Shown here: in pieces, positions 1-39,809 of the stretch
Position numbering within the stretch: position 1 is the first letter of the stretch
How the letters are laid out: each line of letters opens with the position of its first letter
NCBI GenBank assembly: GCA_944336125.1
Contig: CALVLA010000004.1
Span: 12,784-76,783 of the forward strand
DNA length: 64,000 nucleotides
From: an uncultured Clostridia bacterium
GTDB taxonomy: Bacteria; Bacillota; Clostridia; Christensenellales; CAG-314
Reading direction: 5' to 3'
Position numbers and translations under genes: made by a program
Notes under the pieces: generated by a model
Database searches by the model: none
Told to the model about the DNA's origin: nothing
The model's input: only the letters and a program-made list of their open reading frames with translations

Positions 1-1751
1 TGAGCGGCAAGTTCAAGTCCGTGGGAGTTGTAAATCAAGGTGTAGCCGGCAATACCCGTAGTCTTGTGATAAGCCTTGCAGAAGCCGCCGTCGATAACAA
101 GAAGTTTGCCTTCGGCTTTGATAGGATTTTCGCCGTCGATTTCTTTTACAGGCACGTGACCGTTGATGATGTGGCAGTGTTCTCCCTCGATACCGAAATC
201 TCTCAAAAGTTTTTCGCACCACTGTTTTTGCTGGCAAAGCTTGTAATAGCTGTTTTTCTGTTCATGGTGCCACTTTTTGTCGTCGATGTAAACGCGTTCG
301 AAAGTGGTCATTTTGTCCTTGCCGAAAAGCGGAGAAAGCTCGCCGCACCACAGATACCAAGCAAGGTCAAGGCAGTAAGTATTGGTTCTGCCCGCGGTGT
401 AAGCGACGTATGCCTGACGTACGCACTGTTCGCAGTAATCCATTAGTGATTTTCCGTAGTAAGACACGTTGCCCACCTTGAATTTTGCGTAATCGCCGTT
501 TTCGTCGAGAGGAATGCATCCGTGGAAAATGAGGTTGCCATTATAGATGTTGTAAAGCGCGCCCTTTTCGAAGAAGAAGTCAAGGTGTCTGCGAAGTTTT
601 TCGCTGCTGAGGAAGGATTTTTTAAGTCCGTTGAAAATACGTTCTTCCTCTTCGGTAAGTTTGTAAGGGTCGTTTTTGTCAATGGTAGGAAAATCGTTGG
701 AATTGAGTTGTACCTTAGTGCCGTTAATTTCGAGAGTACCGTTTTCGGTATCAAGCCTGTCGATAATAGGCGACATGTTGTACTCAGGATGCCTTTTGAT
801 AGTTTGAGCTTCCTTTTTGAGCATAATGAAGAAAATTGCTTTTCTCATTTTTGCACTGAGTTCGATGTCGTCCTTGCTGATTTTTTGTCCGGTAATCGAA
901 GGGTCGAAATGCTTGTCGTAAGACATGTATCTGTCTGCGTAAAAAGCAAGTTCTCTGAGGCTTATTCCGTAACCGCTTTCAAGCACGTCGGCGTTTCCGT
1001 ATTTGAGGGAAATAGTAACGACGTTTGCAATGCAGGCGTCCTGTCCCATTGCCGCGCCCATCCAAAGCATATCGTGATTGCCCCATTGAATGTCAAGCGA
1101 TTCCTGTTCGCAAAGCATATCGAGGATTTTTTCAGGAGCTTCACCCCTGTCGAAAATGTCGCCGACAATGTGGAGGTGATCCACGACGAGGTTTTTGATG
1201 ACGGTTGCGAGTGAAATTATGTAAGCCTCGGCCCTGCCCAGTTCGATAATGGCGTCAAAAATGCCGTTGTAATATTCTTCCTTGTTGAAATTTGTTCTGT
1301 CGACGTTGATAAGTTCTTCGATGATGTAACCGCAGTAAGCAGGAAGTTTTTTTCTTACCTTGCTGCGGGTATATTTTGACGCTACAAGCCTGCACACGTC
1401 GACAAGGCGGTAAAGATTTGTTTTGTACCACTCGTTGATGTTGTCGCCGCCGTGAACTTTCATTTCCTCGATAATCTGCTGAGGATAATAAATAAGCGTA
1501 GCGAATTTAGCCCTTTCGTTTTCAGGCAAAATTTTGTCGTAAAGCATATCCACTTTTTCGCGGATTGCGCCCGACTTGTTGTTCATGATATGGCAAAAAG
1601 CCTCGTACTCGCCGTGAAGGTCGCTGACAAAGTGTTCGGTTCCCTTCGGGAGTCGCAAAATTGCCTCAAGGTTAATAATTTCCGACGTAGCGGCTTGAAC
1701 GCTCGGATATTTTTCACCCAACAGTTCCAAGAATTTTTCGTTTTTAGTCAT
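1..1751 (-). CDS. fbp: Fructose-1,6-bisphosphatase class III (Firmicute type), 3' end runs off the window
   Basis: Absent from the ORF track because no stop falls in the window. Manual translation from ATG at 1751 gives MTKNEKFLELLGEKYP..IINLEAILRLPKGTEHFVSDLHGEYE, later HIVGDIFDRG, QWGNHD, WYLWCG..FGKDKMTTFER, INGHVPV and VIDGGF..TTGIAGYTLIYNSHG; the segments checked at 1751 and 443 share a frame. Confidence 0.95.
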   Translation of the reverse strand, partial: MTKNEKFLELLGEKYPSVQAATSEIINLEAILRLPKGTEHFVSDLHGEYEAFCHIMNNKSGAIREKVDMLYDKILPENERAKFATLIYYPQQIIEEMKVHGGDNINEWYKTNLYRLVDVCRLVASKYTRSKVRKKLPAYCGYIIEELINVDRTNFNKEEYYNGIFDAIIELGRAEAYIISLATVIKNLVVDHLHIVGDIFDRGEAPEKILDMLCEQESLDIQWGNHDMLWMGAAMGQDACIANVVTISLKYGNADVLESGYGISLRELAFYADRYMSYDKHFDPSITGQKISKDDIELSAKMRKAIFFIMLKKEAQTIKRHPEYNMSPIIDRLDTENGTLEINGTKVQLNSNDFPTIDKNDPYKLTEEEERIFNGLKKSFLSSEKLRRHLDFFFEKGALYNIYNGNLIFHGCIPLDENGDYAKFKVGNVSYYGKSLMDYCEQCVRQAYVAYTAGRTNTYCLDLAWYLWCGELSPLFGKDKMTTFERVYIDDKKWHHEQKNSYYKLCQQKQWCEKLLRDFGIEGEHCHIINGHVPVKEIDGENPIKAEGKLLVIDGGFCKAYHKTTGIAGYTLIYNSHGLELAA

Positions 1752-1806
1752 TTCAACCTCGTATACAAAGAGAGTGACAAATTCGCCACTCTCTGATTGT
1801 CAAAAA

Positions 1807-3636
1807 TTATTTAAGCTCGCGTTCTTTAGGTCTGACGAATATCAACACGATAATGCCTGTGCCGGCGAGGCAGGCAACAACGATGAGAGCGACTCGCAGG
1901 AAATCGTTGAACGGGTTGTTTGAGTAATCCGGAGTACCTTCCACCACTTTAACGATGGTTTCGACTTCTTCTGCGACGTTGCCATCGAGGTCGCGCGCCT
2001 GATAAACGATTACGAATGAGCCGTCAAGGTCAGCGGCGGTAAGTTCTTTCGGAGTAAGCACGCCGTCTTTAAGAATGCTGTCCTCGTAACCTTCTTCGCC
2101 CTCTTTAATGTTTTTAATTTCCGCGCCGCGTGAGCCGTCGGCGTTGAGGTAATAAAGTTTCCAAGTCGAGTAAGCTGTGTCCACACCCGACGCGTTGTCG
2201 GTAATAGTTCCCGTAGGAATTGTGTATTTCTGGTTTACGTCAATTTCGACGGAAGACTCAACAGTGATTGTAGGCGGAGTTTCGTCAAACACTCTGAAGG
2301 CGAAAGGTTCGCTTTCTGTAATGTTGCCTGCAGGATCGGTAAACTTGTATCTGAAATACCAAGTACCGGTTTTGTTGAGTTTAACGGCGTATGACGAAGC
2401 ATAAGTAAATTCGCCGCTTGAACCCGGAGCAAGGTAACCCACCTGAATTTTTACGTTGGAGTAATCGTCGAGTCCGTCGGTAACGGTAACTATTCTCGAA
2501 AATTCTTCTGAGTCGATGTGAGGGAATTCAAAGGTGTTGCCCTCTGTGCTTGCTACGAGGTGGTCAACCTTCAAAACTTCCGCATTTGAAATAAAGCTTT
2601 TGAAAGCCTCGTCGTTTACGGTAACTTCCGCAGTATCCTTTTTAGCAGTAACCTTTAAAGTGATGAGCGGATTTTCGTCTGACTTCAAAGCGTAAATTTT
2701 AATTGTATAAACAGAGCCTTCGGAGCCGATTGCCTGCGAAGTTTTGCCTTCGACTTTTTCGCCTTCCGCTCCGTCCTGAGTAACGGATACAGCCCAACCT
2801 GTTCCCAAGATGTCAAGACAGAAGTAAGGGAAACCGTAAGTCGAATCGGCAGCGGCGTTTACCGCAACGTTAACCGCACTGTCAGATTTGACGATTTGGT
2901 CTTTGCCGTCTTCTTTAGGGATGACTACGGGAGCAATTCTGTTTTCGCCCTCGAATTTGCTGTTTGCAGTAACAAGGGTCTGCGTTCCGTTTGAGCTTTT
3001 GATTGATTTGATTTGAATGACCGCGTCGTTGTCTTCCTCATCGCCTGAAACGCCCTTTACGCCGAAAGACATGTCGGCAATGTTTTTGTAGAATGAAAGC
3101 GTTTTGATGTCGCCTGAGTTAAGTGTAACGCCGTTGAGCGAAAAAGCCCTCGAATTTTTGTCGTAAGACAAAGTAAGACCGGTTTCCGAACTCAAGCTGT
3201 CAGAGCTTACGGTAGTAGCGGCAAAAGCGGTTTCGACGTGGTTGTTATCCTGCATTTTGTAGGAAATTTTTCCGTCTTGAACTTTAAAGGAAAGCTGAAC
3301 CCACTTCGTGTCGTTGTCGTTGTCGGTAAACTTGAACCAGAACTCATCGAAATTTACGCTGTCAAATCTGAAGTTGACTGCAAAGTCGTTCATATCCAAA
3401 GCGTTTTTGTAGCTTGCGGAACTGTCTTTGCTTGCTTTTTCAAAGGTAATTTGCAAGCCGTTTGACAATGACGAAGTAATTTTTGACGAGCCGTCGCCTG
3501 TTGAAGCGAGAGTTGAACCGTAGTAATATTTAACGGTTTCCGCCGCAAAAACGGAGTTGTCCGACAGCACTGCGACAGACGCCGAAAACATCATAAGGAA
3601 AGCGCAAATCACGCCAAGCAGTTTTTTACTTTTCAT
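1807..3636 (-). CDS. Secreted, membrane-anchored surface protein with Ig-like repeats
   Basis: Start after a GGAGGAG RBS (MKSKKLLG); N-terminal signal peptide; DPAGN..DETPPTI and TDNASGVD Ig-like motifs; C-terminal TM helix followed by a basic tail. Confidence 0.7.
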   Translation of the reverse strand: MKSKKLLGVICAFLMMFSASVAVLSDNSVFAAETVKYYYGSTLASTGDGSSKITSSLSNGLQITFEKASKDSSASYKNALDMNDFAVNFRFDSVNFDEFWFKFTDNDNDTKWVQLSFKVQDGKISYKMQDNNHVETAFAATTVSSDSLSSETGLTLSYDKNSRAFSLNGVTLNSGDIKTLSFYKNIADMSFGVKGVSGDEEDNDAVIQIKSIKSSNGTQTLVTANSKFEGENRIAPVVIPKEDGKDQIVKSDSAVNVAVNAAADSTYGFPYFCLDILGTGWAVSVTQDGAEGEKVEGKTSQAIGSEGSVYTIKIYALKSDENPLITLKVTAKKDTAEVTVNDEAFKSFISNAEVLKVDHLVASTEGNTFEFPHIDSEEFSRIVTVTDGLDDYSNVKIQVGYLAPGSSGEFTYASSYAVKLNKTGTWYFRYKFTDPAGNITESEPFAFRVFDETPPTITVESSVEIDVNQKYTIPTGTITDNASGVDTAYSTWKLYYLNADGSRGAEIKNIKEGEEGYEDSILKDGVLTPKELTAADLDGSFVIVYQARDLDGNVAEEVETIVKVVEGTPDYSNNPFNDFLRVALIVVACLAGTGIIVLIFVRPKERELK

Positions 3637-3799
3637 ATATAAAACTCCTCCGAGTTTGTAACTCATATGCTTCAATATTTTACATTCAAAGGGCGACGTT
3701 TGTCAATTAAAAGGCGTAAAAGAAAGGCATCAAAAGTAAATTAACGCTAAAAACACCAAAATTTTTGACACTACATAGGATAAACCGAAGGACTTTTTA

Positions 3800-4336
3800 T
3801 TGGCGGCTATGAATTTTTATATATTTTTGGGAGCGACGGCGCTTGCGGTAAGTCTCGACAGCGGATTTGCCGGTTTTGCGATGGGGATGAAGACTGAAAG
3901 ATACTGGGCAGGCTTTCCGCTGGCAGTTGCGGCAATCACGCTGCTTCTTTGCGTAATTGCGGTAAAAGCGGGTGAAATTTTAGACGGACTGTTGGGAGAC
4001 TTCGTTACCTTTGCAGGCGTTGCGGTACTGGCGCTTGTAGGTATAATCAACTTTTTCAAATCTGAAAAATGCGAAATATCCTTCAGACCTACGCTAAAAG
4101 AAAGCCTGCTTATCGGAGCCGCCGTAGGAACAGACGCCGCGGCGGCAAACTTTTCGCTTTGCCTTATGGGACACACATCCCTTTTGATTCCCCTGCTTTT
4201 TGCCGTCACGCACTTTATCACGGTTTCGGCAGGCTTTTTCCTCGCAAACCGTTCGTTTTTAAAAAATCTCAAACACACAAACAAGTTTGCAGGGTTGCTG
4301 CTTGTGAGCCTTGCCCTATTCAAACTTTTCGGTTAA
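3800..4336 (+). CDS. MntP/YtaF family membrane protein
   Basis: Duplicated motif ALAVSLDS..G / GAAVGTDAAA..FS and about 6 hydrophobic segments. Confidence 0.75.
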   Translation: MAAMNFYIFLGATALAVSLDSGFAGFAMGMKTERYWAGFPLAVAAITLLLCVIAVKAGEILDGLLGDFVTFAGVAVLALVGIINFFKSEKCEISFRPTLKESLLIGAAVGTDAAAANFSLCLMGHTSLLIPLLFAVTHFITVSAGFFLANRSFLKNLKHTNKFAGLLLVSLALFKLFG

Positions 4337-4362
4337 AAAAAACACGGCAATTTGCCGTGTTT

Positions 4363-5079
4363 TTACATTGAGTAATTTTCGATATATTTTTTAAGTTCAA
4401 ACTTTTTCCAAGGTTCTTTGTCCTCAGGAGGATAAGCAACAAACACCATGCTGTCGCCTGTAACGGGATGAGTAAATTTCAGCTCATACGCCCACAAAGC
4501 AAGGTTGCTTCCCTTTGAAAGTTTGTCGCCGTACTTAACGTCGCCGAAAAGCGGACAGTTTTGCGCCGCCATCTGCACGCGAATCTGATGACTGCGTCCC
4601 GTTTCCAGTGAAACTTTGACAAGGGTAATTGCTCCCTTGCTTTCAAGCTGACGGTATTTCAAAACGGCTTTTTTTGCTCCTTCGGTAAGGCTCGTGGCTA
4701 TGTAAACGGTGTTGGTGTTGGGATTTTTTTTCAGCCAGTTGACAAGCTCGCCGCTTTCGTTTTTAAGGCTGCCGTTAATTACCGCGAGATAGTTTTTTTC
4801 CACTTCGCGCTCGCGAATTGCCGCGCAAAGCCTGTCTGCGGCTTTTGACGTCTTGGCAAACACCATTACGCCGCCGGTTGGCCTGTCAAGCCTGTGGACA
4901 AGTCCGAGATAAACGTCGCCCGGCTTTTGATATTTTTCCTTAAGCCAGTTTTTAAGGACGTTCAGCAAATCGTCGTCTTTCGAGCTGTCTTCCATAACGG
5001 GCATATTTTGCGGTTTGACCACCACAAGCAAATGGTTGTCCTCGTACAATACGCTTACGTCATCCATTGAAAAAAGCAT
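4363..5079 (-). CDS. RluA/RluD family pseudouridine synthase
   Basis: LYEDNHLLVVVKP, VHRLDRPTGG and LETGRSHQIRVQ motifs; start overlaps the upstream stop (TAATG). Confidence 0.92.
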   Translation of the reverse strand: MLFSMDDVSVLYEDNHLLVVVKPQNMPVMEDSSKDDDLLNVLKNWLKEKYQKPGDVYLGLVHRLDRPTGGVMVFAKTSKAADRLCAAIREREVEKNYLAVINGSLKNESGELVNWLKKNPNTNTVYIATSLTEGAKKAVLKYRQLESKGAITLVKVSLETGRSHQIRVQMAAQNCPLFGDVKYGDKLSKGSNLALWAYELKFTHPVTGDSMVFVAYPPEDKEPWKKFELKKYIENYSM

Positions 5080-5942
5080 TAGGTTTCTCCCTGCCAGATA
5101 CCGCTGGCGCCGCACGGCAACACGATACCCTCGTCGGTATCCAGACAAACTTCGTAGCTGTCTGTTTTGCCCTTGCGGTTTTTCATCGTCATTTTTAGTA
5201 TGTTGTTCAAAACCGCGGGTTGAAGTCCCGTGGTGTAACTGTTAATCAGCACAAAAAGCGGATTGTCCGAAAGCACCTGTTCGCAAAGTTGCATGAAGTC
5301 GAACAAATCGTTTTCGATCTTCCAGATTTCGCCGTTGGAGCCCCTTCCGTAACTAGGCGGATCGAGAATTATGGCGTCGTACTTTTTGCCTCGCCTGATT
5401 TCGCGCATGACAAACTTTTTACAGTCGTCTACTATGAAACGCGCCTTGTCAAAACTAAGTCCGGAAAGGGAAATGTTTTCCTTCGCGCGCTCCACCATAT
5501 TTTTGGCAGCGTCCACGTGGCATACGCTTGCTCCCGCCGAAAGGCAGGCAACGGTAGCCCCGCCGGTGTAAGCAAAAAGGTTAAGCACGTTTATCGGACG
5601 GTTTGCTTTTTTGATGAGGTCAATCATCATGTCCCAGTTTGCCGCCTGTTCGGGGAAAAGCCCCGTGTGCTTAAATCCCATGGGTTTGACGCGAAACTTA
5701 AGGTCGCGCCACCCCACAACCCAGCTTTCCGGCATAGGCTTGAGATATTCCCAATGTCCTCCGCCGGTGTCGCTGCGTAAATATTTTGCGTTAAGCTTGG
5801 GAAACTTTTCGAGGTTTTTTTCCGTTTTCCAGATGACCTGCGGGTCAGGCCTTAAAAGGTAAACGTCTTTCCACCTTTCAAGCTTCATTCCGTCGCTTGT
5901 CGCGAGTATTTGATAATCTTTCCACTCTTTGTTTATTTTCAT
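5079..5942 (-). CDS. Class I SAM-dependent methyltransferase (RlmI/RlmK-like)
   Basis: HTGLFPEQ, VLNLFAYTGG and IILDPPSYG motifs; start overlaps the ileS stop. Confidence 0.85.
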   Translation of the reverse strand: MKINKEWKDYQILATSDGMKLERWKDVYLLRPDPQVIWKTEKNLEKFPKLNAKYLRSDTGGGHWEYLKPMPESWVVGWRDLKFRVKPMGFKHTGLFPEQAANWDMMIDLIKKANRPINVLNLFAYTGGATVACLSAGASVCHVDAAKNMVERAKENISLSGLSFDKARFIVDDCKKFVMREIRRGKKYDAIILDPPSYGRGSNGEIWKIENDLFDFMQLCEQVLSDNPLFVLINSYTTGLQPAVLNNILKMTMKNRKGKTDSYEVCLDTDEGIVLPCGASGIWQGET

Positions 5943-8900
5943 TTTACCTGTGTGAGAGAGATGGTTACTTCTTCGCCGTTGATGTCCCACACCTTGGAAA
6001 CCTGACCTTCGCTTCCCTCTTTGATGCTGTCGCAAAGAGTGTCAGCCATGATTTCCTTTCCGCGTTTGACGAATACGTCCTTAGCCTTGCCCTTTGCGAC
6101 AAACTGCAAAGTGATGTGGTCGGTTACGTTGAAGTCGCTTTCCTTTCTCATTGTCTGCACTTTGGAAACGATTTCCCTTGCGATACCCTCTTCGATAAGG
6201 TCTTGATCAAGCGAAGTGTCGAGAGCAACCGTTACGCCCTTGTCGGAAACTGTTTCAAAACCGTCTCTGTTTTTGGAAGAAATGAGAAGGTCTGCCTCGG
6301 TAAGCTCAACGGTTTTTCCGTCGATTTCGGTAACGTATGCCTTGCCGCTTCTGACGGTGTTAACCACTTCGTCGGCGTTGCACTCGGTCAAGAACACTTT
6401 GATTTTTCCGAGGAGAGCGCCGTATTTAGGACCGATTGTCCTCATTTGAGGTTTAAGTTCGTAACCGGCAAAAGCGCTTGCGTCTTTTGCGTATTTGACT
6501 TGTTTTACGTTAAGCTCGTCGGCGAGAATGTCGGTAAGTTCCTTTGAAAACTCTTCGCCGTCGGACACTATGAACAACTGCGAAAGCGGTTGTCTGTTTT
6601 TGATGTTTGCGGAGTTTCTTGCGCTTCTGCCGAGAACAACTACGTCCATGAGTTTTTCCATGTCTTTTTCAAGTTTGACGTCAATCATACTTTCGTCGCA
6701 GACAGGGAAAGTAGTCAGGTGAACGGATTCAGGAGCGTTTTTGTCAACGCTTTTAACAAGGTTTTGATAAATGCTTTCCGCCATAAACGGAACGTAAGGA
6801 GCGAGAAGTCTTGACAAAGTCACGAGAACGTGGTCAAGCGTCATGTAAGCCGCTTTTTTGTCCTCAGTCATTTCGCTGCCCCAGTACCTTTCGCGGCAGC
6901 GGCGGACGTACCAGTTGGAAAGAACGTCCACAAACTCTTCGATCTTTCTCGCGGTTTCGGTGATTTGATATTTGTCAAGTCCCTCGTCAACGAATTTGAT
7001 GAGCGAGTTGAGTTCCGACAAAATCCATTTGTCCATAACCGTCAAAGCGCAGTCTTTGAGGTTTATGCCGGTCGGGTCAAACTTGTCGATGTCGGCATAA
7101 AGCACGAAAAACGCATAGGTATTCCACAAAGTGCCCATAAAGCGTCTTTGCGCTTCGGAAACGGCGTCGGCGTAAAATCTGCTAGGAAGCCAAGGCGCGC
7201 TTGAAGTGTAGAAGTACCACCTTACCGCGTCGGCGCCCTGTTTGTCGAGTACCGTCCACGGATCGACTACGTTTCCTTTGTGTTTGGACATTTTTTGTCC
7301 GTCCTTGTCGTTGACGTGACCCAAAACGATACAGTTTTTGAAAGGCGCTTTGTCAAAAATCAGGGTAGATACGGCAAGCAATGTGTAAAACCAGCCCCTT
7401 GTCTGGTCAACCGCTTCGGAAATGAAGTCGGCAGGGAAGTTCTTTTCAAACAATTCCTTGTTTTCGAAAGGATAATGGAATTGGGCAAAAGGCATCGAGC
7501 CGCTGTCGTACCAGCAGTCAATAACTTCGGGTTCTCTCACAAAAGTACCGCCGCACTCACACTGCCATTTGCAGTCGTCGATGTATGGCCTGTGAAGTTC
7601 GATGTCACCTTTTATGCCGCAAAGGTTTTTGAGTTCTTCCTTGCTTCCGATTACGTGAATTTTGCCGCATTTGTTGCAAACCCAGACAGGAAGCGGAGTA
7701 CCCCAGTATCTTTCACGCGAAATGCCCCAGTCGATGAGGTTTTCGAGGAAGTTTCCCATACGTCCGGTGCCGATTGTAGGAGGCATCCAGTTGACGCTGT
7801 TGTTGCTGTTTATGATACGGTCTTTGATTGCGGTAACTTTGATAAACCAGCTTTTGCGAGCGTAATAAATGAGCGGAGTGTCGCATCTCCAGCAAAAAGG
7901 ATAGCTGTGCTCGAACATAAGCTCTTTGAAAAGAAGTCCTGTGTCAGCGAGTTTTTTAAGCACGAGCTTGTCGGCGTCTTTCACAAACACGCCCTTCATG
8001 TCGTAAACTTCTTCGGTCATGCAGCCGTCTGCGCCTACGAGCTGAACGAAAGGCAGGTTGTATTTGAGGGAAACTCTCGCGTCGTCCTCACCGAAAGCAG
8101 GCGCGATGTGAACGATACCGGTACCGTCGGTAAGGGTTACGTAATCGTCACAGATGACTTTGTAAGCATTTTCAGGATTTACATAGTCGAAAAGCGGAAT
8201 ATATTTTCTGAGTTCAAGCTGTTTGCCCTTTACGGTTTCGACCTTTTCGTAAGTTCCTTCCTCAAAGCAGGTAGGAATAAGGGCGTCCGCCATAATGAAA
8301 TATTCGTCGCCGCATTTGAGTTTTGTGTAGTCCTCGTTTGCGTTTACGCAAAGACCCACGTTTGAAGGCAATGTCCAAGGAGTGGTCGTCCATGCGAGGT
8401 AGTAAGTGTTTTCCTCGTCGGCAGCTTTAAACTTCGCGATTACGGATTTTTCTTTAACGTCCTTGTAGCCTTGAGCGACTTCGTGGCTTGAAAGAGCCGT
8501 TCCGCAGCGAGGGCAGTAAGGAACGATTTTGTGTCCTTTGTAAAGGAGTCCTTTGTCGAAAATCTGTTTAAGGCTCCACCAAACCGACTCGATGTACTTG
8601 TCGTCGTATGTGATGTAAGGGTTTTCCATGTCGACCCAGTAACCCACGCGGTCGCTCATTTTTTCCCATTCGCCTTTGTATTTCCAAACCGACTCCTTGC
8701 ACTTTTTGATAAAAGGCTCGATACCGTAGTTTTCGATTTCCTTTTTGCCGTCGATGCCCAAAAGCTTTTCAACTTCCAACTCGACAGGAAGACCGTGAGT
8801 ATCCCAGCCTGCTTTGCGCAGTACGGTGTAGCCCTTCATCTGTTTGTAGCGAGGGATAATATCTTTCATGACACGGGTGAGAATATGCCCGATGTGAGGT

Positions 8901-9058
8901 TTTCCGTTAGCGGTAGGCGGCCCGTCGTAAAATGAAAAAACGGGTTTGCCGTCTGTATCTTCGGCAGTTTGTTCGAAGATGCGGTTTTCTTTCCAGAATG
9001 TGAGGATGTCCTTTTCCCTGGAGATAAAATCAAGTCCGGTGTCAACTTTTTTGTACAT
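5939..9058 (-). CDS. ileS: Isoleucine--tRNA ligase
   Basis: GPPTANGKPHIGH (HIGH) and KMSKH motifs; real start MYKKVD follows an AAGGAG RBS. Confidence 0.97.
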   Translation of the reverse strand: MYKKVDTGLDFISREKDILTFWKENRIFEQTAEDTDGKPVFSFYDGPPTANGKPHIGHILTRVMKDIIPRYKQMKGYTVLRKAGWDTHGLPVELEVEKLLGIDGKKEIENYGIEPFIKKCKESVWKYKGEWEKMSDRVGYWVDMENPYITYDDKYIESVWWSLKQIFDKGLLYKGHKIVPYCPRCGTALSSHEVAQGYKDVKEKSVIAKFKAADEENTYYLAWTTTPWTLPSNVGLCVNANEDYTKLKCGDEYFIMADALIPTCFEEGTYEKVETVKGKQLELRKYIPLFDYVNPENAYKVICDDYVTLTDGTGIVHIAPAFGEDDARVSLKYNLPFVQLVGADGCMTEEVYDMKGVFVKDADKLVLKKLADTGLLFKELMFEHSYPFCWRCDTPLIYYARKSWFIKVTAIKDRIINSNNSVNWMPPTIGTGRMGNFLENLIDWGISRERYWGTPLPVWVCNKCGKIHVIGSKEELKNLCGIKGDIELHRPYIDDCKWQCECGGTFVREPEVIDCWYDSGSMPFAQFHYPFENKELFEKNFPADFISEAVDQTRGWFYTLLAVSTLIFDKAPFKNCIVLGHVNDKDGQKMSKHKGNVVDPWTVLDKQGADAVRWYFYTSSAPWLPSRFYADAVSEAQRRFMGTLWNTYAFFVLYADIDKFDPTGINLKDCALTVMDKWILSELNSLIKFVDEGLDKYQITETARKIEEFVDVLSNWYVRRCRERYWGSEMTEDKKAAYMTLDHVLVTLSRLLAPYVPFMAESIYQNLVKSVDKNAPESVHLTTFPVCDESMIDVKLEKDMEKLMDVVVLGRSARNSANIKNRQPLSQLFIVSDGEEFSKELTDILADELNVKQVKYAKDASAFAGYELKPQMRTIGPKYGALLGKIKVFLTECNADEVVNTVRSGKAYVTEIDGKTVELTEADLLISSKNRDGFETVSDKGVTVALDTSLDQDLIEEGIAREIVSKVQTMRKESDFNVTDHITLQFVAKGKAKDVFVKRGKEIMADTLCDSIKEGSEGQVSKVWDINGEEVTISLTQVK

Positions 9059-9064
9059 AGTAAA

Positions 9065-9290
9065 CTCCTTAATAAAAAAATGCCCGTTGTCTAGACCAAC
9101 AGGCACCACTAAACATATACAATCATATAGTTTCCCTTTAACGGAGGAAAGGCGCGTCCGCTTACTCAATTTGGGCGGCCGAGCTAACGCGGTGATAATT
9201 TTTTGAGGGAAGATGCGTATTTGCACCAGACAACGCTCTCTGAAAACTTCCTTGTCGAAAAACCGTGTCCGCGGTCAAAGCTTTTTAACT
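9065..9290 (-). promoter_or_regulatory. T-box riboswitch, Ile specifier (AUC)
   Basis: Minus strand: CAGAGAG, GGTGCAA, specifier ATC-A at 9194-9196 before the CCGC stem base, CCGTTA box, TGGT bulge, and a terminator TGCCTGTTG..CAACGGGCA followed by T7. Confidence 0.75.
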
Positions 9291-10030: not shown

Positions 10031-10296
10031 ACTGTGCTAGGTGGGGAGCCAGCGGTGCCCTGAACCCGCAATCCGCTACAGCGGGGCTGAAAGCCGGCCG
10101 AGGCTTGGTTTTGGAGGGTATGGAACCGATAAGGAGTGTTGATAACAAGGTCCCGTGCAACAGTGCACTGTGAACCATGTCAGGGCGGGAACGCAGCAGC
10201 ATTAAGCAGACCGTACTGTGTGCCACGGGGAAACTTTGCAGTAGCCACCTGTCGGGATACCTCCTCGGGGATTTAAGTCGACGCCGGAAGCACGGT
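10031..10296 (+). ncRNA. ffs: Large (Firmicute-type) SRP RNA
   Basis: Alu-like 5' GTGCTAGGTGGGGAGCCAGCGGTGCCCTG..GCAATCCGCT; helix 8 TCAGGGCGGGAACGCAGCAGC; the ends ACTGTGCT and AGCACGGT can pair. Confidence 0.92.
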
Positions 10297-17989: not shown

Positions 17990-18125
17990 TTTGAAAAAAC
18001 TCATTTCCGCGATATAAAGAAGCCCTTGTACTAAGGCACAAGGGAAACAAAACGAAACGTTTGAATCTTTGTACCTCGGCAAGATTTAACCCGAAGGACT
18101 TGCTGTCTATGGTCAAAGGGCTTTT
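17990..18125 (-). promoter_or_regulatory. L10 ribosomal leader
   Basis: AGACAGCAAG..CTTGCCGAGG kink-turn stem followed by a CCCTTGT..ACAAGGG attenuator hairpin upstream of rplJ. Confidence 0.8.
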
Positions 18126-18144
18126 TATTTTTTTAAGGGCAAAC

Positions 18145-20330: not shown

Positions 20331-20463
20331 AATAACACTCTCCAAACAAAAAAATTCACACCCGATACGAGTGCTAAAATATATTATCACAACAAACTTA
20401 AGCTGTCAAACGTTTTGTCGAAAATAAAAACAATAATAAAAGCCGCTTAAAAGCGGCTTGAAC

Positions 20464-21510
20464 TTATTTAGTAACGCTTAATGTTTCCTGAGGAATCTGT
20501 TGCTCGTTTTGCTGAGTTTTTTGTTTTGCGTCAGGTTCTTTTCTTGCGAAGAAGTTTGCGACAAGCGCGCCTACGATTTGGTGAATAACGGTTGCCAAAA
20601 CGCAAGGCAGTGCCGCAAGCGAGCCGTAAGCAGAAGCAAGTCCCACCGCAAGTCCGCTGTTTTGAAGTCCCACCTCAAGTGTCAACGCCCTTGTTTTTGC
20701 GTCGTTGAACTTAAACAGTTTTGAAATTCCGTATCCTGCGGCAAGCCCCAAAACGTGGTGAAGCAAAACTATAAACATGATAAGCAGCGAACTTGTCTGC
20801 AAAAGCTGGTTTGTATTCGGAGCAACGCACATCGCAACGATAAGCACGATTGAAAGAGTGGAAACCAAAACAAGCAGACTTTTGATTTTTTCAGCCTTGT
20901 CCCCTATCAAGGTGTGAACGACTATTCCCAAAACGATAGGCAAAGCGACAACCAAAACTACCGACAAAAACATGTTGAGAAAATCCACTTCAACCCATTG
21001 GCTGCCCAAAGCGTATGTAAGCGCAGGTGTAAGCAAGGTTGCCAAAATCGTCGTGCACATGGTGATTGTTACAGAAAGCGGAACGTCCCCTTTTGCGAGA
21101 AAAGTCATGACGTTACTTGCCGTGCCTCCGGGAACACAACCCAAAAGTATAAGACCGATTGCCGTTTCGGCGTCGAGAGCAAAAATTTTGGCAAGCAGGA
21201 ACGCAAGACCCGACATCACTATATATTGACTGAAAATTCCGATAATGACGTCTTTAGGACGTTTTACTATTTCCTTGAAGTCGTCGGCTTTGAGAGTCAT
21301 GCCCATGCCGAACATGATGACGCCCAGCAAAATGTTGGTTAAACTGAGCGAAGCCATGTGACTTCCGAAAAGCGCTTGGGTGTTTACGCTGGCAGAGGCC
21401 AGCGATTTAAAAAAGTCGGTGAACAAAAATGCCGCCGCGGCAAAAACTATCGTGAGCAAAGCCATATATTTGCCGCAGAACTTACCTAGGGTGTCAATTA
21501 CTTTCATCAT
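20464..21510 (-). CDS. Bile acid:sodium symporter (BASS/PanS-like) family transporter
   Basis: LGVIMFGMGMTL, GCVPGGTASNVMTFLAKGD and LEVGLQNSGLA motifs. Confidence 0.9.
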   Translation of the reverse strand: MMKVIDTLGKFCGKYMALLTIVFAAAAFLFTDFFKSLASASVNTQALFGSHMASLSLTNILLGVIMFGMGMTLKADDFKEIVKRPKDVIIGIFSQYIVMSGLAFLLAKIFALDAETAIGLILLGCVPGGTASNVMTFLAKGDVPLSVTITMCTTILATLLTPALTYALGSQWVEVDFLNMFLSVVLVVALPIVLGIVVHTLIGDKAEKIKSLLVLVSTLSIVLIVAMCVAPNTNQLLQTSSLLIMFIVLLHHVLGLAAGYGISKLFKFNDAKTRALTLEVGLQNSGLAVGLASAYGSLAALPCVLATVIHQIVGALVANFFARKEPDAKQKTQQNEQQIPQETLSVTK

Positions 21511-21513
21511 GTA

Positions 21514-22623
21514 TCAGGCATTTTCCTTTTTGAATTTTTTGCCGCATTCGTCGGTTTCCTTCATGCAGGCGATAAGCGTTTCCTTAGTGATGTTTGCCTC
21601 TGGAGCGCGGTGAGCCCATTCTGTTGTTTTTGTGGCTTTTTCCGCAATTGCTTCGAAGTCGCTTTGTTCAACCTCGATGTCGCCGAAGCAAACAGGAAGT
21701 CCTACGCTTGCGTTAAACTTCATTATCTTGTCCCTTTCCTCAAAGTTTTTGTCAAAGGTCAAAAGACAAAGCACACCGAGAGAAACGACTTCGCCGTGAA
21801 GATGATTGTGTGCGTTTTTGGTAACGGTCGTTCCGTTGTAAACCATGTGAGCGATTGAGCTGTTGTAGTAGTAATCGTCTGCTGTAGTAGTAAGGTTGGA
21901 CACGATACCCGTGCTTATGATGATGTCAAGTGTAACCTGGTCAAGCTCGAAGGAAGGTTTTTTAGCCTTGATGTCATCGAGTGCTTTTTTGCCGTAAGTC
22001 AAAAGCGGTGAAGTGCAGATACGGCTCATCTGCCTGCCCATCAAAGTAGTATGGAACAAATCTGCGTACTTTGACGAGAAGATAACTTCGCACTCCTTGC
22101 TGAGAGCGTCGCCGATACCTGCCCACAAAAGTTTTTCAGGAGAGTCGGCAATTACCGCGGAATTGATAAACGCGTGGTTGGCCAGTTTTTTAGGGTAGTA
22201 ATAGTTGCAGAAGGAGCCGTCCTCGTTGTACATGACGCAAATTTGAGTTACCGAAGCGCAGTTTGAAGCAACGGTAGGAAAAGTAAACACGGGTTTTTCG
22301 AGAACGTCGGCAACGTATTTGCCGCAGTCGCATGCCCTGCCGCCGCCTACGACGAAAAGCATATCTGCGTTTTTGACTCTCTCGTCGTTAATGAGCTTGT
22401 CGCCGTTTGCGTATGAAGCGTCACCGCCGTACCAGATAAAGTCTGTAATGTTGATTTGTGAATTTTCCACGCCTTTCAAAAGGAAATCATGCGTCTTTTG
22501 CATGGCGATTTTACCGCCTATTACGACGGCGTTTTTGCCGTAAAATTTGCATACTTCGGGGATGGACTTGTATGCGTCCTCACCTATCGTGTAACTTGGA
22601 AGCGAAACTGTGTAAGTTTTCAT
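21514..22623 (-). CDS. Glycerol dehydrogenase-like (GldA/HcxA family) NAD-dependent dehydrogenase
   Basis: VGGGRACDCGK, PTVASNCA and AGIGDALSK motifs; metal-ligand His in IAHMVY and HLHGEVV. Confidence 0.85.
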   Translation of the reverse strand: MKTYTVSLPSYTIGEDAYKSIPEVCKFYGKNAVVIGGKIAMQKTHDFLLKGVENSQINITDFIWYGGDASYANGDKLINDERVKNADMLFVVGGGRACDCGKYVADVLEKPVFTFPTVASNCASVTQICVMYNEDGSFCNYYYPKKLANHAFINSAVIADSPEKLLWAGIGDALSKECEVIFSSKYADLFHTTLMGRQMSRICTSPLLTYGKKALDDIKAKKPSFELDQVTLDIIISTGIVSNLTTTADDYYYNSSIAHMVYNGTTVTKNAHNHLHGEVVSLGVLCLLTFDKNFEERDKIMKFNASVGLPVCFGDIEVEQSDFEAIAEKATKTTEWAHRAPEANITKETLIACMKETDECGKKFKKENA

Positions 22624-22654
22624 AATATATCTCCTTTTTCGAAAAAATTTTTTA

Positions 22655-22915
22655 AAAAAAAGTCTCTTCGTGCCTAAGCACAAAGAGACGAGTTTTGTTT
22701 ACCCGCGGTACCACTCTTATTCGTCAAACGACGCTCTCATGAGATATCCAACAATATCCTGCTCTTTAACGGGAGCAAAGCGGTTTTGCTTACTCTGTTG
22801 GGCAAAACGGCTCCAAGGTGATGAAAAAAAGGATTGTTTTGTTGCCTCGCACCAAACGGCAATTCTCTGAAAAACAACGGCCTTAATCCCGTATCCTTAT
22901 CTACGCTTATCTTGA
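22655..22915 (-). promoter_or_regulatory. T-box riboswitch, Ile specifier (AUC)
   Basis: Canonical AATAAGAGTGGTACCGCGG (22703-22721), CAGAGAA, GGTGCGA, CCGTTA, specifier ATC-A at 22820-22822, and a terminator GTCTCTT..AAGAGAC followed by a T-run. Confidence 0.92.
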
Positions 22916-23071
22916 TTGCTGAAGATTTTAGCACTGTGAATTTCAAATGTCAAACGATTAAAATAAATTTTTCAAACTTTTTTTCATTTTAAAAGCACAC
23001 CCTTTTTTTGAAGTAATATATGCCGCCGTATCCTAAAAAAAACCTGCCGCATAAAATAAAAAGAGGTATTT

Positions 23072-24070
23072 ATGAACTGCGACAAATGGGACAAATGCAC
23101 TAAAATAATATTTGCCAACGGTCCGCGGGGGCCACGCGGATTTCCGGGACCGGCGGGCAGCGACGGTGCCACGGGACCAACGGGACCCGCCGGAACACAG
23201 CAAGGACCCACAGGTCCGACGGGACCGACAGGACCTCAGGGAACACAAGGCGCCGCAGGTCCCACAGGTCCTACGGGGGCAGACGGGGTCACGGGTCCTA
23301 CCGGCCCGCAGGGAATTCAGGGTGAAACAGGGCCCACAGGCCCAACTGGTTTAAGCGGCGCGCTTGCGACAAACCCCTACGACTTGTTTGTAAAAGCAGG
23401 AAGCGTGGGCGGTGACGGTAGCAGACAAAATCCATACGGCACGATTGCCGAAGGTTACGCCGCCGTTATGCCTTACGGAACAATCAATATTCTCGAAGGG
23501 ACCTATCCTCTGACGACGCAGCTGCAAATAGCAAAAGACGGAGTTACGCTTGAAGGAAAAAACGGAGCCAAAATTGTTTTGCAAACGGCGGTAATCCCCT
23601 TTTTGATTACGTCAAATGACGTAACGATAAAGAACCTTAAAATAACAAGCGACCTGCCTTACCCCAACGAATTCATACAGATAGGCGGAAGCAACGCGGT
23701 CATAAAAGACAACGAAATTTTCGGCCCGCCTCAGGCAGGCGATTCAAGCGGCTGGGTGGTCAACCGCGGTGTAGTTGCACAAAACGGCGCAAGTGACTTT
23801 TTAATTGAAAGCAATTTGTTTTATTCACTACGCCAGCCTGCCTACTTCAATCCCTCCTCCAACGGCGAAGTTCTTTTCAACACGGTGTTAAACACAAGGG
23901 GTTACGTAGTAGATAGATCCTCGGTGCTGTTTTCCGGCAACTCATGGGGAATACCCGAAAATGCCGTTGACATAGCCTTGCTTTCAGGCACTCAAAGCGG
24001 CGCACCCTACGACCCCACCGCAAAACTTTCCCAGTACAATTCAGCCGCCAACATCAGCGACCAAAGATAA
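23072..24070 (+). CDS. Collagen-like (GPT-repeat) protein with a C-terminal beta-helix domain; probable spore surface protein
   Basis: About 25 Gly-X-Y triplets; Cys-containing N-terminus; [13 protein letters not shown] (DUF1565-like) followed by beta-helix repeats. Confidence 0.75.
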
Positions 24071-33774: not shown

Positions 33775-33922
33775 AATCACTCCTTTCAGGGCAGCAAAAA
33801 AGCCGATGAGCCCTGCATTTGAATTTGCAGAAGTCATCAGCTTAAAAAGCGGTTTAAGGTTTCCCTAAGGAAGAACTTCATTTCCGTCAACGATTATAAT
33901 TCATAAAAGTTAAACAGTCAAC

Positions 33923-39436: not shown

Positions 39437-39809
39437 TGGTGGAGGTGATGGGACTTGCACCCACGTACCGACGAGCGAACGTCATGCCTTCTCCGTGCGC
39501 AGTCGTTTTTTTGTTTTCCCCTTTCACGCTTGAAACGACACAATCGAAAAAGGGTGATACGCTAAGTTACTAAACGCCGACGCGTCAGGCGGCGTTTCAT
39601 TTTACCGTGTATTCTGATGCCGTTTGCCTGCCACACGGTATGCAGGGACGACACGCCGCAATAAGTTAAGCAGCAAGTGCAACGGTGTTGTAACCGTTGT
39701 TTACACTAGTTTTGTTAGCGTTTAAATTTAATTTCCGTTTTTACGCAGCCGAGCCTGCGGCACGCTTACACGACACCCGACCTCACCGGGCGAATCTGAA
39801 AACACCCCC
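39437..39809 (-). ncRNA. ssrA: tmRNA
   Basis: 5' GGGGGTG, 3' T-arm then CACCTCCACCA; tag ORF ending ALAA* at 39666-39719; downstream of smpB. Confidence 0.95.

Follow-up and report, generated by a model that had tools for sequence, protein, structure and literature searches.

T-box riboswitches induce genes that raise the supply of their cognate amino acid. That 2-hydroxy and 2-oxo analogues can replace Leu, Ile and Val for growth is an old nutritional finding in lactic acid bacteria, whose D- and L-2-hydroxyisocaproate dehydrogenases (HicDHs) have lactate dehydrogenase (LDH) or D-2-hydroxyacid dehydrogenase folds and not the GldA/DHQS-like fold; to our knowledge, HicDHs are neither T-box-controlled nor paired with BASS carriers. 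Here we describe a two-gene operon of an uncultured Clostridia bacterium (Christensenellales, CAG-314), in which a T-box leader precedes the genes of a GldA-fold dehydrogenase (ADH) and a carrier of the BASS family. It lies within a 64,000-nucleotide stretch of DNA, hereafter the window (GenBank assembly GCA_944336125.1, contig CALVLA010000004.1, positions 12,784 to 76,783 of the forward strand). The physiology we propose for it equals that of the HicDHs, namely conversion of a hydroxy analogue to the keto acid and on to the amino acid by transamination, with an enzyme of a different fold.

The RNA of this operon shares its architecture and its uncharged-tRNA antiterminator logic with the T-box leaders of ilv-leu operons and BrnQ-type carriers (Wels et al., 2008; PMC2494555). 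Like the system in the window, BrnQ carriers probably have a multi-specific function in branched-chain amino acid (BCAA) metabolism under one specifier, which is switched by point mutation. What differs from the targets in that survey is the controlled genes, here a GldA-fold dehydrogenase and a BASS carrier; the words "dehydrogenase" and "bile" occur nowhere in its text, and full-text literature searches returned no paper linking a T-box to Fe-ADH/GldA or BASS proteins in a BCAA context, or describing how gut auxotrophs salvage hydroxy acids. Whereas the RNA belongs to a known family and is ordinary in it, the regulated function is, as far as we found, new.

According to our analysis, the operon probably serves BCAA supply, as indicated by the regulation across about 22 leaders and by the phyletic pattern of the biosynthesis genes. 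For its chemistry we lean towards a reading in which BASS imports 2-hydroxy-3-methylvalerate and ADH oxidises it to 3-methyl-2-oxovalerate with NAD(P)+, on account of the constant dehydrogenase at loci where a keto acid is needed, pocket substitutions as in HcxA and the GldA variant GlyDH*, partners that are anion carriers, and the adjacency of IlvE in some relatives. Comparison with about 80 relatives suggests that the ADH family lets BCAA-auxotrophic gut bacteria rebuild BCAAs from scavenged 2-hydroxy acids. The features of the operon are as follows.

22925..22953 (-): sigma-70-type promoter, with TTGACA at 22948-22953, a 17-nt spacer and an extended -10 element, TGnTAAAAT, at 22925-22930
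22681..22912 (-): T-box leader RNA (stem I, stem II/IIA-B region, stem III, T-box sequence, antiterminator), matching RF00230
22820..22822 (-): specifier codon AUC (Ile), as placed by the register of the covariance model (CM)
22710..22713 (-): UGGU of the T-box bulge, CM alignment GUGGUACCGCG, the final U pairing with discriminator A73
22654..22689 (-): intrinsic terminator of the leader, with a 12-bp stem, 4-nt loop and U8 (fold -25.6 kcal/mol, z = -3.8)
21514..22623 (-): GldA-fold, metal-dependent NAD(P) dehydrogenase (ADH), 369 aa, ribosome-binding site AAAGGAG at 22631-22637; proposed branched-chain 2-hydroxy-acid dehydrogenase
20464..21510 (-): BASS/SBF-family carrier, 348 aa; proposed importer of a beta-branched 2-hydroxy (or 2-oxo) acid
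20440..20459 (-): operon-end intrinsic terminator, with an 8-bp stem and U-rich tail, 5 nt past the BASS stop

In a permissive cmscan search the leader matched RF00230 over the full model (positions 1-219) at 22681-22912 (-), with 91.6 bits and an E-value of 1e-20 in the local scan and 1.1e-18 for the whole window. This is 1.4 bits under the gathering score of 93, and since the leader of ileS in the window (see below) also scores under it, a default Rfam gathering scan of the window reports no T-box. The orthologous leader of locus L102 reached 103.7 bits with the same model. In the CM alignment the distal stem I platform motifs AGAGA and GGUG are present (CAGAGAAUUGCCG and UUUGGUGCGAGGCAAC, respectively), and C-AUC-A-CCUU is aligned to the consensus a-uuc-a-CCcu at the specifier position. 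The AUC codon is followed by A at 22819 and by the strand CCUU (22815-22818), which base-pairs with AAGG at the bottom of stem I, and the same register yields AUC in L102, L012, L049 and L061. The original prediction had read ATC-A-CCTT as the close of stem I in an Ile T-box; the full-length match agrees with it, AUC being the codon that the CM register gives.

The T-box sequence of the leader is AGAGUGGUACCGCGGG, with the bulge UGGU. The single tRNA-Ile of the bacterium's own genome (G000) has the anticodon GAU, the discriminator A73 and the end A-CCA, and the expected match of UGGU in both leaders of the window to A73 is therefore correct. The promoter matches at 11 of 12 positions, has TG ahead of its -10 element and is kept in the orthologous leaders of L102 and L002. 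The 5' strand of the terminator overlaps the 3' strand of the antiterminator, so that the two structures are mutually exclusive. As securely as sequence analysis allows, the leader is a transcription-attenuation T-box riboswitch reading tRNA-Ile(GAU). When tRNA-Ile is uncharged, its anticodon would pair with the AUC of stem I and its free ACCA end with UGGU, and the antiterminator would form in place of the 12-bp terminator, allowing transcription of the two-gene operon.

The first gene of the operon starts at ATG 22623, behind AAAGGAG; the TTG start of a 389-aa open reading frame is an over-extension. The gap between ADH and BASS is exactly 3 nt, as had been noted before. The regulon extends to a second gene in the window.

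9060..9287 (-): weaker Ile T-box before ileS (5939-9058, -), with AUC-A-CCGC and UGGU

This leader was found in the local permissive scan only (9029-9287, -; 35.9 bits, E 3e-6), which upholds the earlier reading of its ATC-A-CCGC arrangement at a lower score. The ileS T-box and the ADH-BASS T-box belong to the same Ile regulon. The terminator hairpin of the ileS leader (GCCUGUUG ... CAACGGGC + U7) begins directly past UGGU, and the antiterminator geometry there is atypical.

In order to compare the locus with its relatives, a profile search was performed on one genome per species, which returned 80 orthologous ADH loci with 56-78% identity, mostly from gut Clostridia and some from Desulfovibrionaceae. 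A regular-expression search combined with an nhmmer profile built from the leaders placed T-boxes at 21 of them. Specifiers were read by eye, as in L073, and representative leaders were checked with cmscan; antisense open reading frames over ADH (the "c1" cluster) were left out when neighbours were read. AUC (Ile) is the specifier in the window, L102, L012, L049, L061 and L073, where the T-box stands directly before a BASS-like gene; GUC (Val) is found in L011 and L036, and CUC (Leu) in L002, L024, L032 and 11 further, near-identical leaders. Among the about 22 T-boxes no specifier outside Ile, Val and Leu occurs, and all bulges read UGGU. The gene orders around ADH were as follows.

T-box, ADH alone: eight loci
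T-box, ADH, BASS: window, L102, L011, L012, L036, L061
T-box, ADH, c2 (a membrane protein family described below): L049
T-box, c2, ADH paralogue, ADH, major facilitator superfamily (MFS) protein, metallo-beta-lactamase-fold protein, MFS protein: five or six loci
No T-box: IlvE-ADH-BASS (L050) and IlvE-ADH ... BASS (L043)

Judged from these layouts, ADH is the constant element, and the transporters (BASS, c2, MFS) are interchangeable. Locus L102 has 82% ADH identity to the window, the same ADH-BASS pair, AUC-A and the same synteny before rpmG-secE-nusG. Homologous gene pairs had been expected to carry AUC T-boxes; this holds for L102, L012 and L061, and the pairs of L011 and L036 carry GUC. Within ADH operons, BASS accompanies six of the seven Ile/Val leaders and none of the 14 Leu leaders. 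The six-gene Leu (CUC) operon was seen in L040, L047, L051, L058, L075 (about 1080-8080) and L038; its ADH paralogue is 45% identical, and the two ADHs in tandem might serve the D and L forms of the hydroxy acid.

In a maximum-likelihood tree most T-box-linked ADHs fall into one clade, in which the Ile, Val and Leu labels are interleaved. Sister pairs are the window (Ile) and L002 (Leu), L011 (Val) and L012 (Ile), and L038 (Leu) and L061 (Ile). L011 and L012 are two contigs of one Anaerotruncus metagenome-assembled genome and hold sister paralogous T-box-ADH-BASS operons, one with GUC and one with AUC. When aligned, the leader of the window and those of L102 and L002 have a mean column identity of 76% and the same promoter; being orthologous, they place the difference between AUC-A and CUC-G as a change within an orthologous leader. 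In the nearest sister species the orthologous leader carries a Leu specifier, and there is no BASS gene. The idea of an Ile-specific device is thus not sustained, as the ADH family is a branched-chain (Ile/Val/Leu) one. A partition of ADH into substrate-specific clades by specifier was considered and rejected because the labels are interleaved, and specificity positions for each amino acid were dropped. Within the window's own family ADH is patchy (two of five genomes of the genus, none of 20 others). L012 additionally holds a divergent T-box-controlled c2 gene, with a tRNA-Sec downstream.

We posit that ADH would be a general branched-chain hydroxy-acid salvage enzyme, which different lineages put under Ile, Val or Leu control by point changes of the specifier. 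In the window, BASS would take up from the gut lumen a 2-hydroxy acid with a beta branch, for which 2-hydroxy-3-methylvalerate is the likeliest candidate, and the GldA-fold NAD(P)+ dehydrogenase would oxidise it to 3-methyl-2-oxovalerate. An aminotransferase would then yield isoleucine, this being IlvE in most relatives and presumably one of three AspB-like class I enzymes here. The broadest form of this proposal, on which we are evenly divided, is that gut Clostridia without de novo BCAA synthesis possess an unrecognised salvage system in which 2-hydroxy acids serve as a cross-fed amino-acid currency. It would consist of a natural GldA-fold 2-hydroxy-acid dehydrogenase, interchangeable importers (BASS for the beta-branched Ile and Val analogues, c2 or MFS for Leu) and T-boxes in which one or two point mutations suffice to move the specifier from one of Ile, Val and Leu to another.

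The proposal offers a testable function for a large unannotated ADH subfamily and for a BASS clade, and it draws attention to the T-box-controlled c2 family. If it is true, many gut auxotrophs of the Oscillospiraceae type meet their Ile, Val and Leu needs partly from the 2-hydroxy acids of their neighbours, which bears on metabolic models of gut auxotrophy and cross-feeding. The locus would also be a clean natural case of T-box specifier switching on one orthologous gene. Nature would moreover have passed from glycerol to 2-hydroxy-acid specificity through the same two residues that directed evolution found in the engineered enzyme GlyDH* (see below).

The distribution of biosynthesis genes is consistent with such a salvage step. 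The genome that holds the window (1.24 Mb, 94.6% complete) was found to contain no IlvC. IlvC scored over its cut-off in two of 19 genomes with a T-box-linked locus, in neither of the two IlvE-ADH genomes (L043, L050) and in 22 of 24 genomes with a T-box-less orthologue (Fisher p = 3.6e-8, kinship ignored). A class IV aminotransferase (IlvE) is present in 44 of the 45 genomes holding related loci, the sister species included, and in L043 and L050 its gene lies directly upstream of ADH. T-box control thus goes with genomes that are predicted to be unable to make branched-chain keto acids yet able to transaminate them. The absence of IlvC together with the retention of IlvE is the signature expected of a salvage step that produces a keto acid.

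These data also bear on the direction of catalysis. GldA-fold enzymes are reversible, and it was the reductive reaction that was characterised for HcxA and GlyDH* (PMC4222570). It is conceivable on these grounds that under Ile limitation a toxic or competing 2-oxo acid is reduced and the hydroxy acid exported via BASS, as a form of detoxification or overflow. We regard this as highly unlikely, as T-box logic induces the supply of the cognate amino acid, and the loss of biosynthesis with retention of IlvE points to acquisition. Oxidation of an imported hydroxy acid therefore remains the direction we favour.

The sole IlvD-family gene of the genome (G000 C8:32898-34451, +; L001) is divergent, with 389 bits (cut-off 618). 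In place of GCDKNxPG, the cluster-binding motif expected of an IlvD, it has ANDAAT, and it is probably not a working dihydroxy-acid dehydratase. A check for absent ilv genes, which had been recommended, thus found the genome to lack IlvC and a class IV aminotransferase and to carry a degenerate IlvD-like gene. This decides the variant in which 2-hydroxybutyrate is oxidised to 2-oxobutanoate and fed into the IlvBN-IlvC-IlvD-IlvE pathway. The variant drew on HcxA as a precedent for 2-oxobutanoate, named in the original prediction, and the annotation of HcxA was confirmed. With no IlvC, no IlvE and a degenerate IlvD-like gene, however, it is effectively refuted for this genome, 17 of the 19 T-box-linked genomes lack IlvC, and 2-oxobutanoate could not explain the Val and Leu specifiers of the orthologues; we give it almost no credence. 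The original prediction had proposed import and oxidation of an Ile precursor under Ile starvation. Its core is supported by the Ile/Val/Leu specifiers, the absence of IlvC with IlvE kept, the IlvE adjacency and the pocket changes described next, and its 2-hydroxybutyrate part, which the lack of IlvC and the degenerate IlvD-like gene exclude, has to be given up.

ADH matches the Pfam Fe-ADH family, and its nearest curated NCBIfam model is the glycerol dehydrogenase subfamily. It scores well under the cut-offs of the subfamily model PRK09423 and the GldA equivalog (190 against 336 and 124 against 700 bits, respectively) and under that of the YbdH/HcxA-type model PRK10586 (109.5 against 429 bits). 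Over 1,600 relatives were seen in a protein search, currently labelled "iron-containing alcohol dehydrogenase" or "glycerol dehydrogenase". The solved relatives are all glycerol dehydrogenases with 22-26% identity, and an AlphaFold (AF2) model (mean confidence, pLDDT, 85.7) superposed on 1kq3, 5zxl and 1jq5 with Foldseek template-modelling (TM) scores of 0.83-0.86. The metal triad D172/H259/H276 and the GGG motif that binds the dinucleotide (G93-G95) are invariant in the family, the triad aligning with D173/H256/H274 of 1jq5.

The substrate pocket differs from that of GldA at two places. The Asp of the S-T-D-A-P motif of GldA is not kept in ADH, which reads SNCAS, with C122 invariant across the family, and the Phe loop G-F-E-S-G-G of GldA is replaced by an invariant DDYYYNSS, which is 4 residues longer. 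The STDAP Asp and the GFESGG Phe reportedly belong to the glycerol pocket of GldA (structures 1JQ5/1JQA). The same alignment column holds an invariant Cys in the ADH family and in E. coli HcxA (YbdH). HcxA resembles ADH in its GldA fold and in this Cys at the glycerol-binding Asp position, and it acts on 2-oxo and 2-hydroxy carboxylates; it differs in sequence (26% identity over 271 residues) and in having no YYYNS loop, T-box or transporter partner. In E. coli K-12 (L103, 632389-634746) hcxA divergently adjoins ybdL, a methionine transaminase gene; a dehydrogenase is thus placed beside an aminotransferase by the same logic as in the IlvE-ADH pairs of L043 and L050.

A second precedent comes from the laboratory. 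PDB entry 6csj is a double mutant of the Bacillus coagulans polyol dehydrogenase that has gained D-lactate dehydrogenase activity; its sequence has ASTNAP in place of the ASTDAP of wild-type GldAs, and GIGSESGG in place of their GLGFESGG. For the mutant GldA (GlyDH*, gldA101), PMC4222570, citing Wang et al. (2011), describes a pyruvate reductase activity, and this enzyme shows by experiment that GldA becomes a 2-oxo/2-hydroxy-acid enzyme when the Asp and the Phe are changed. The natural ADH family departs from GldA at exactly the positions that are mutated in 6csj. GlyDH* is laboratory-evolved and acts on pyruvate and lactate, whereas the changes in ADH are natural (a Cys; a Tyr-rich loop with a 4-residue insertion) and its proposed substrates are branched-chain. 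The pocket changes thus match those of GldA relatives that act on 2-hydroxy acids, which supports the proposed activity.

The automated family names would suggest an ordinary glycerol or diol dehydrogenase with a bile-acid-type symporter, behind a fortuitous or vestigial T-box. We consider this very improbable. The scores lie far under the cut-offs of GldA (190 vs 336) and PanS (226 vs 400), other residues stand in place of the Asp and Phe that bind glycerol, and the T-box is complete, conserved in L102 and recurrent at about 21 orthologous loci.

The carrier is a clear member of its superfamily, with 144.9 bits for PF01758 (cut-off 24.3) and 84.3 bits for PF13593, and it falls under the equivalog and generic cut-offs (226.7 against 400 bits for PanS; 234 against 326 for TIGR00841). 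Its clade is labelled "bile acid symporter". Members of the BASS family take anions, and relatives carry 2-oxo acids and pantoate or ketopantoate; the substrates of PanS and of the plant BASS carriers are beta-branched 2-hydroxy or 2-oxo monocarboxylates, chemically near 2-hydroxyisovalerate and 2-hydroxy-3-methylvalerate. PanS of Salmonella and the plant BASS 2-oxo-acid carriers share the fold of the window carrier, but the context of PanS is pantothenate and that of the window carrier is BCAA-related.

The affinity of BASS relatives for 2-oxo acids, pantoate and ketopantoate, with the 226 bits for PanS, could also mean that the operon serves Ile supply by importing a 2-oxo acid or isoleucine itself, the dehydrogenase being an accessory. 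The latter could regenerate a pair that accepts or donates amino groups, such as 2-hydroxyglutarate/2-oxoglutarate, as HcxA does, or balance redox. HcxA is annotated as a general hydroxycarboxylate dehydrogenase, and in the window's own genome a Leu T-box controls a transporter-like protein without a dehydrogenase, both of which would fit. Yet it is ADH and not the transporter that is the constant T-box-controlled gene, with T-box and ADH alone at eight loci, and a redox role leaves the exclusive use of Ile, Val and Leu specifiers and the IlvE adjacency unexplained. We judge this alternative unlikely, and hydroxy-acid oxidation by ADH the better account of the layouts.

The transporter-like protein just mentioned belongs to c2, a family of polytopic membrane proteins of about 390 aa with the motif HAGGGFATGNQ, which is often in an operon with ADH. 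It had no Pfam or NCBIfam match. The c2 genes, controlled by Leu (CUC; probably CUG in L012) or Ile T-boxes, are as follows.

G000 C3:32235-33700 (+): c2
L049:1617-2759: c2
L012:1333-2787 (-): c2
L047:1178-2356: c2
L028:3133-4377: c2

We regard c2 as a candidate new transporter family for BCAAs or BCAA precursors.

The T-boxes of the own genome place the operon in a wider context. There are eight, four of them before synthetase genes, namely Phe (pheST), Val (valS), Thr (thrS) and Ile (ileS). The others are the Ile T-box of ADH-BASS, the Leu (CUC) T-box of c2, a Tyr (UAC) T-box before a gene of the tryptophanase/tyrosine phenol-lyase family and one before an acyl-CoA-synthetase fusion. In the last case (G000 C1:177450-180013, -), a T-box of 106 bits precedes a 763-aa fusion of an XRE-type helix-turn-helix domain, a cupin and an acyl-CoA synthetase, whose best curated match is MbcS, a branched-chain carboxylate CoA ligase (468 bits, under the equivalog cut-off). 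Its specifier reads AUC with a five-pair basal helix, or UCC by the strict CM register. Ile is favoured because UGGU fits A73 of tRNA-Ile and all four tRNA-Ser have G73, and the fusion is probably under an Ile T-box. A multi-subunit 2-oxoacid:ferredoxin oxidoreductase (OFOR) is encoded at about C1:7.5-10.5 kb. The MbcS-like gene and OFOR suggest a wider regulon for salvage of the Ile keto acid, and there may be two Ile-controlled routes to 3-methyl-2-oxovalerate, one from the hydroxy acid and one from 2-methylbutyrate.

The same genes open a further alternative for ADH, which belongs to the Fe-ADH superfamily. It could oxidise a branched alcohol, aldehyde or diol (e.g., 2-methylbutanol or 2-methylbutanal) to 2-methylbutyrate, which the MbcS-like synthetase, under its probable Ile T-box, would convert to the acyl-CoA and OFOR, by reductive carboxylation, to the Ile keto acid. 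ADH, however, lies on the GldA branch, where the substrate is bound via two adjacent oxygens on the metal, and not on the monoalcohol Fe-ADH branch. BASS carriers moreover take anions, and the pocket changes fit relatives that act on 2-hydroxy acids. A 2-hydroxy acid accordingly remains the preferred substrate, and we consider the alcohol route quite improbable.

Beside this Ile group, the Tyr (UAC) T-box at G000 C9:25489-27230 (+) precedes a 481-aa gene of the tryptophanase/tyrosine phenol-lyase (TPL) family (PRK13238, 584 bits; TPL equivalog 433 bits, under the cut-off). Its product may allow tyrosine to be made from phenol, pyruvate and ammonia under Tyr starvation. The genome-wide scan of the own genome revealed no T-box before tyrS.

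Several observations weigh against the proposed salvage route or narrow it, and they concern the amination step first. The own genome contains no class IV aminotransferase. In the sister species IlvE adjoins an ABC-exporter pair; at the syntenic position the contig of the own genome runs on without a break and other genes are found there, so that the loss of IlvE looks real and not an assembly gap, the remaining 5% of the genome aside. The step from the keto acid to Ile consequently has no assigned route there. Six class I/II aminotransferases are present, three of which, at G000 C15:162-1211, C1:43630-44709 and C2:177319-178338, are AspB-like, and two Ile-controlled routes to the keto acid would make some aminating enzyme more likely than a dead-end pathway.

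Further such points come from the comparison of loci. About 59 of the 80 orthologues have neither a T-box nor conserved neighbours. A conserved partner or regulator at these loci was sought by reading the translations and rejected, as the neighbours (MltG-like, acyltransferase, HAD hydrolase, EamA, a small heat-shock protein and others) are unrelated and variable and give no functional clue. The association with IlvC is partly confounded with phylogeny, since the T-box-linked copies mostly form one Oscillospiraceae-rich clade. As the Leu T-box of the own genome controls c2 without a dehydrogenase, the cargo of c2, and by analogy that of BASS, might be the keto acid or the amino acid as such. 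Observed are the anatomy and specifier of the riboswitch, the gene pair, the use of Ile, Val and Leu specifiers, the association with IlvC loss and the pocket substitutions. We infer the substrate from how the genes are regulated, from the phyletic pattern and from two positions of the pocket; the direction of catalysis, the cargo of the carrier and the final amination are likewise inferred.

In the leader itself, the S-turn of the specifier loop (AGUA ... GAA) is degenerate in the CM alignment, reading ACGGG and UUU. Support for the codon call thus comes from the CM register, from the purine behind the codon and from the leaders of orthologues; of the latter, L102 is similarly degenerate at the S-turn positions, and other orthologous leaders retain GAA. 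Metatranscriptome contigs from chicken and other gut samples cover the leader (22633-22899), the 5' end of ADH (22334-22641), the ADH-BASS junction (21406-21556) and parts of BASS, but they are short, with a depth of 2-4, and one run (X1) may contain DNA. The locus thus exists and is probably transcribed in vivo, and the contigs are insufficient to quantify terminator read-through or attenuation.

Divergent from the promoter of the T-box, the window encodes a 332-aa protein (23072-24070, +) in which collagen-like G-X-Y repeats precede a right-handed beta-helix region. Among RNAs that exceed their Rfam gathering scores, the window further contains a fluoride riboswitch (33821-33894, -), an L10 leader (18008-18130, -), a large signal recognition particle (SRP) RNA (10032-10295, +) and a tmRNA (39437-39809, -).

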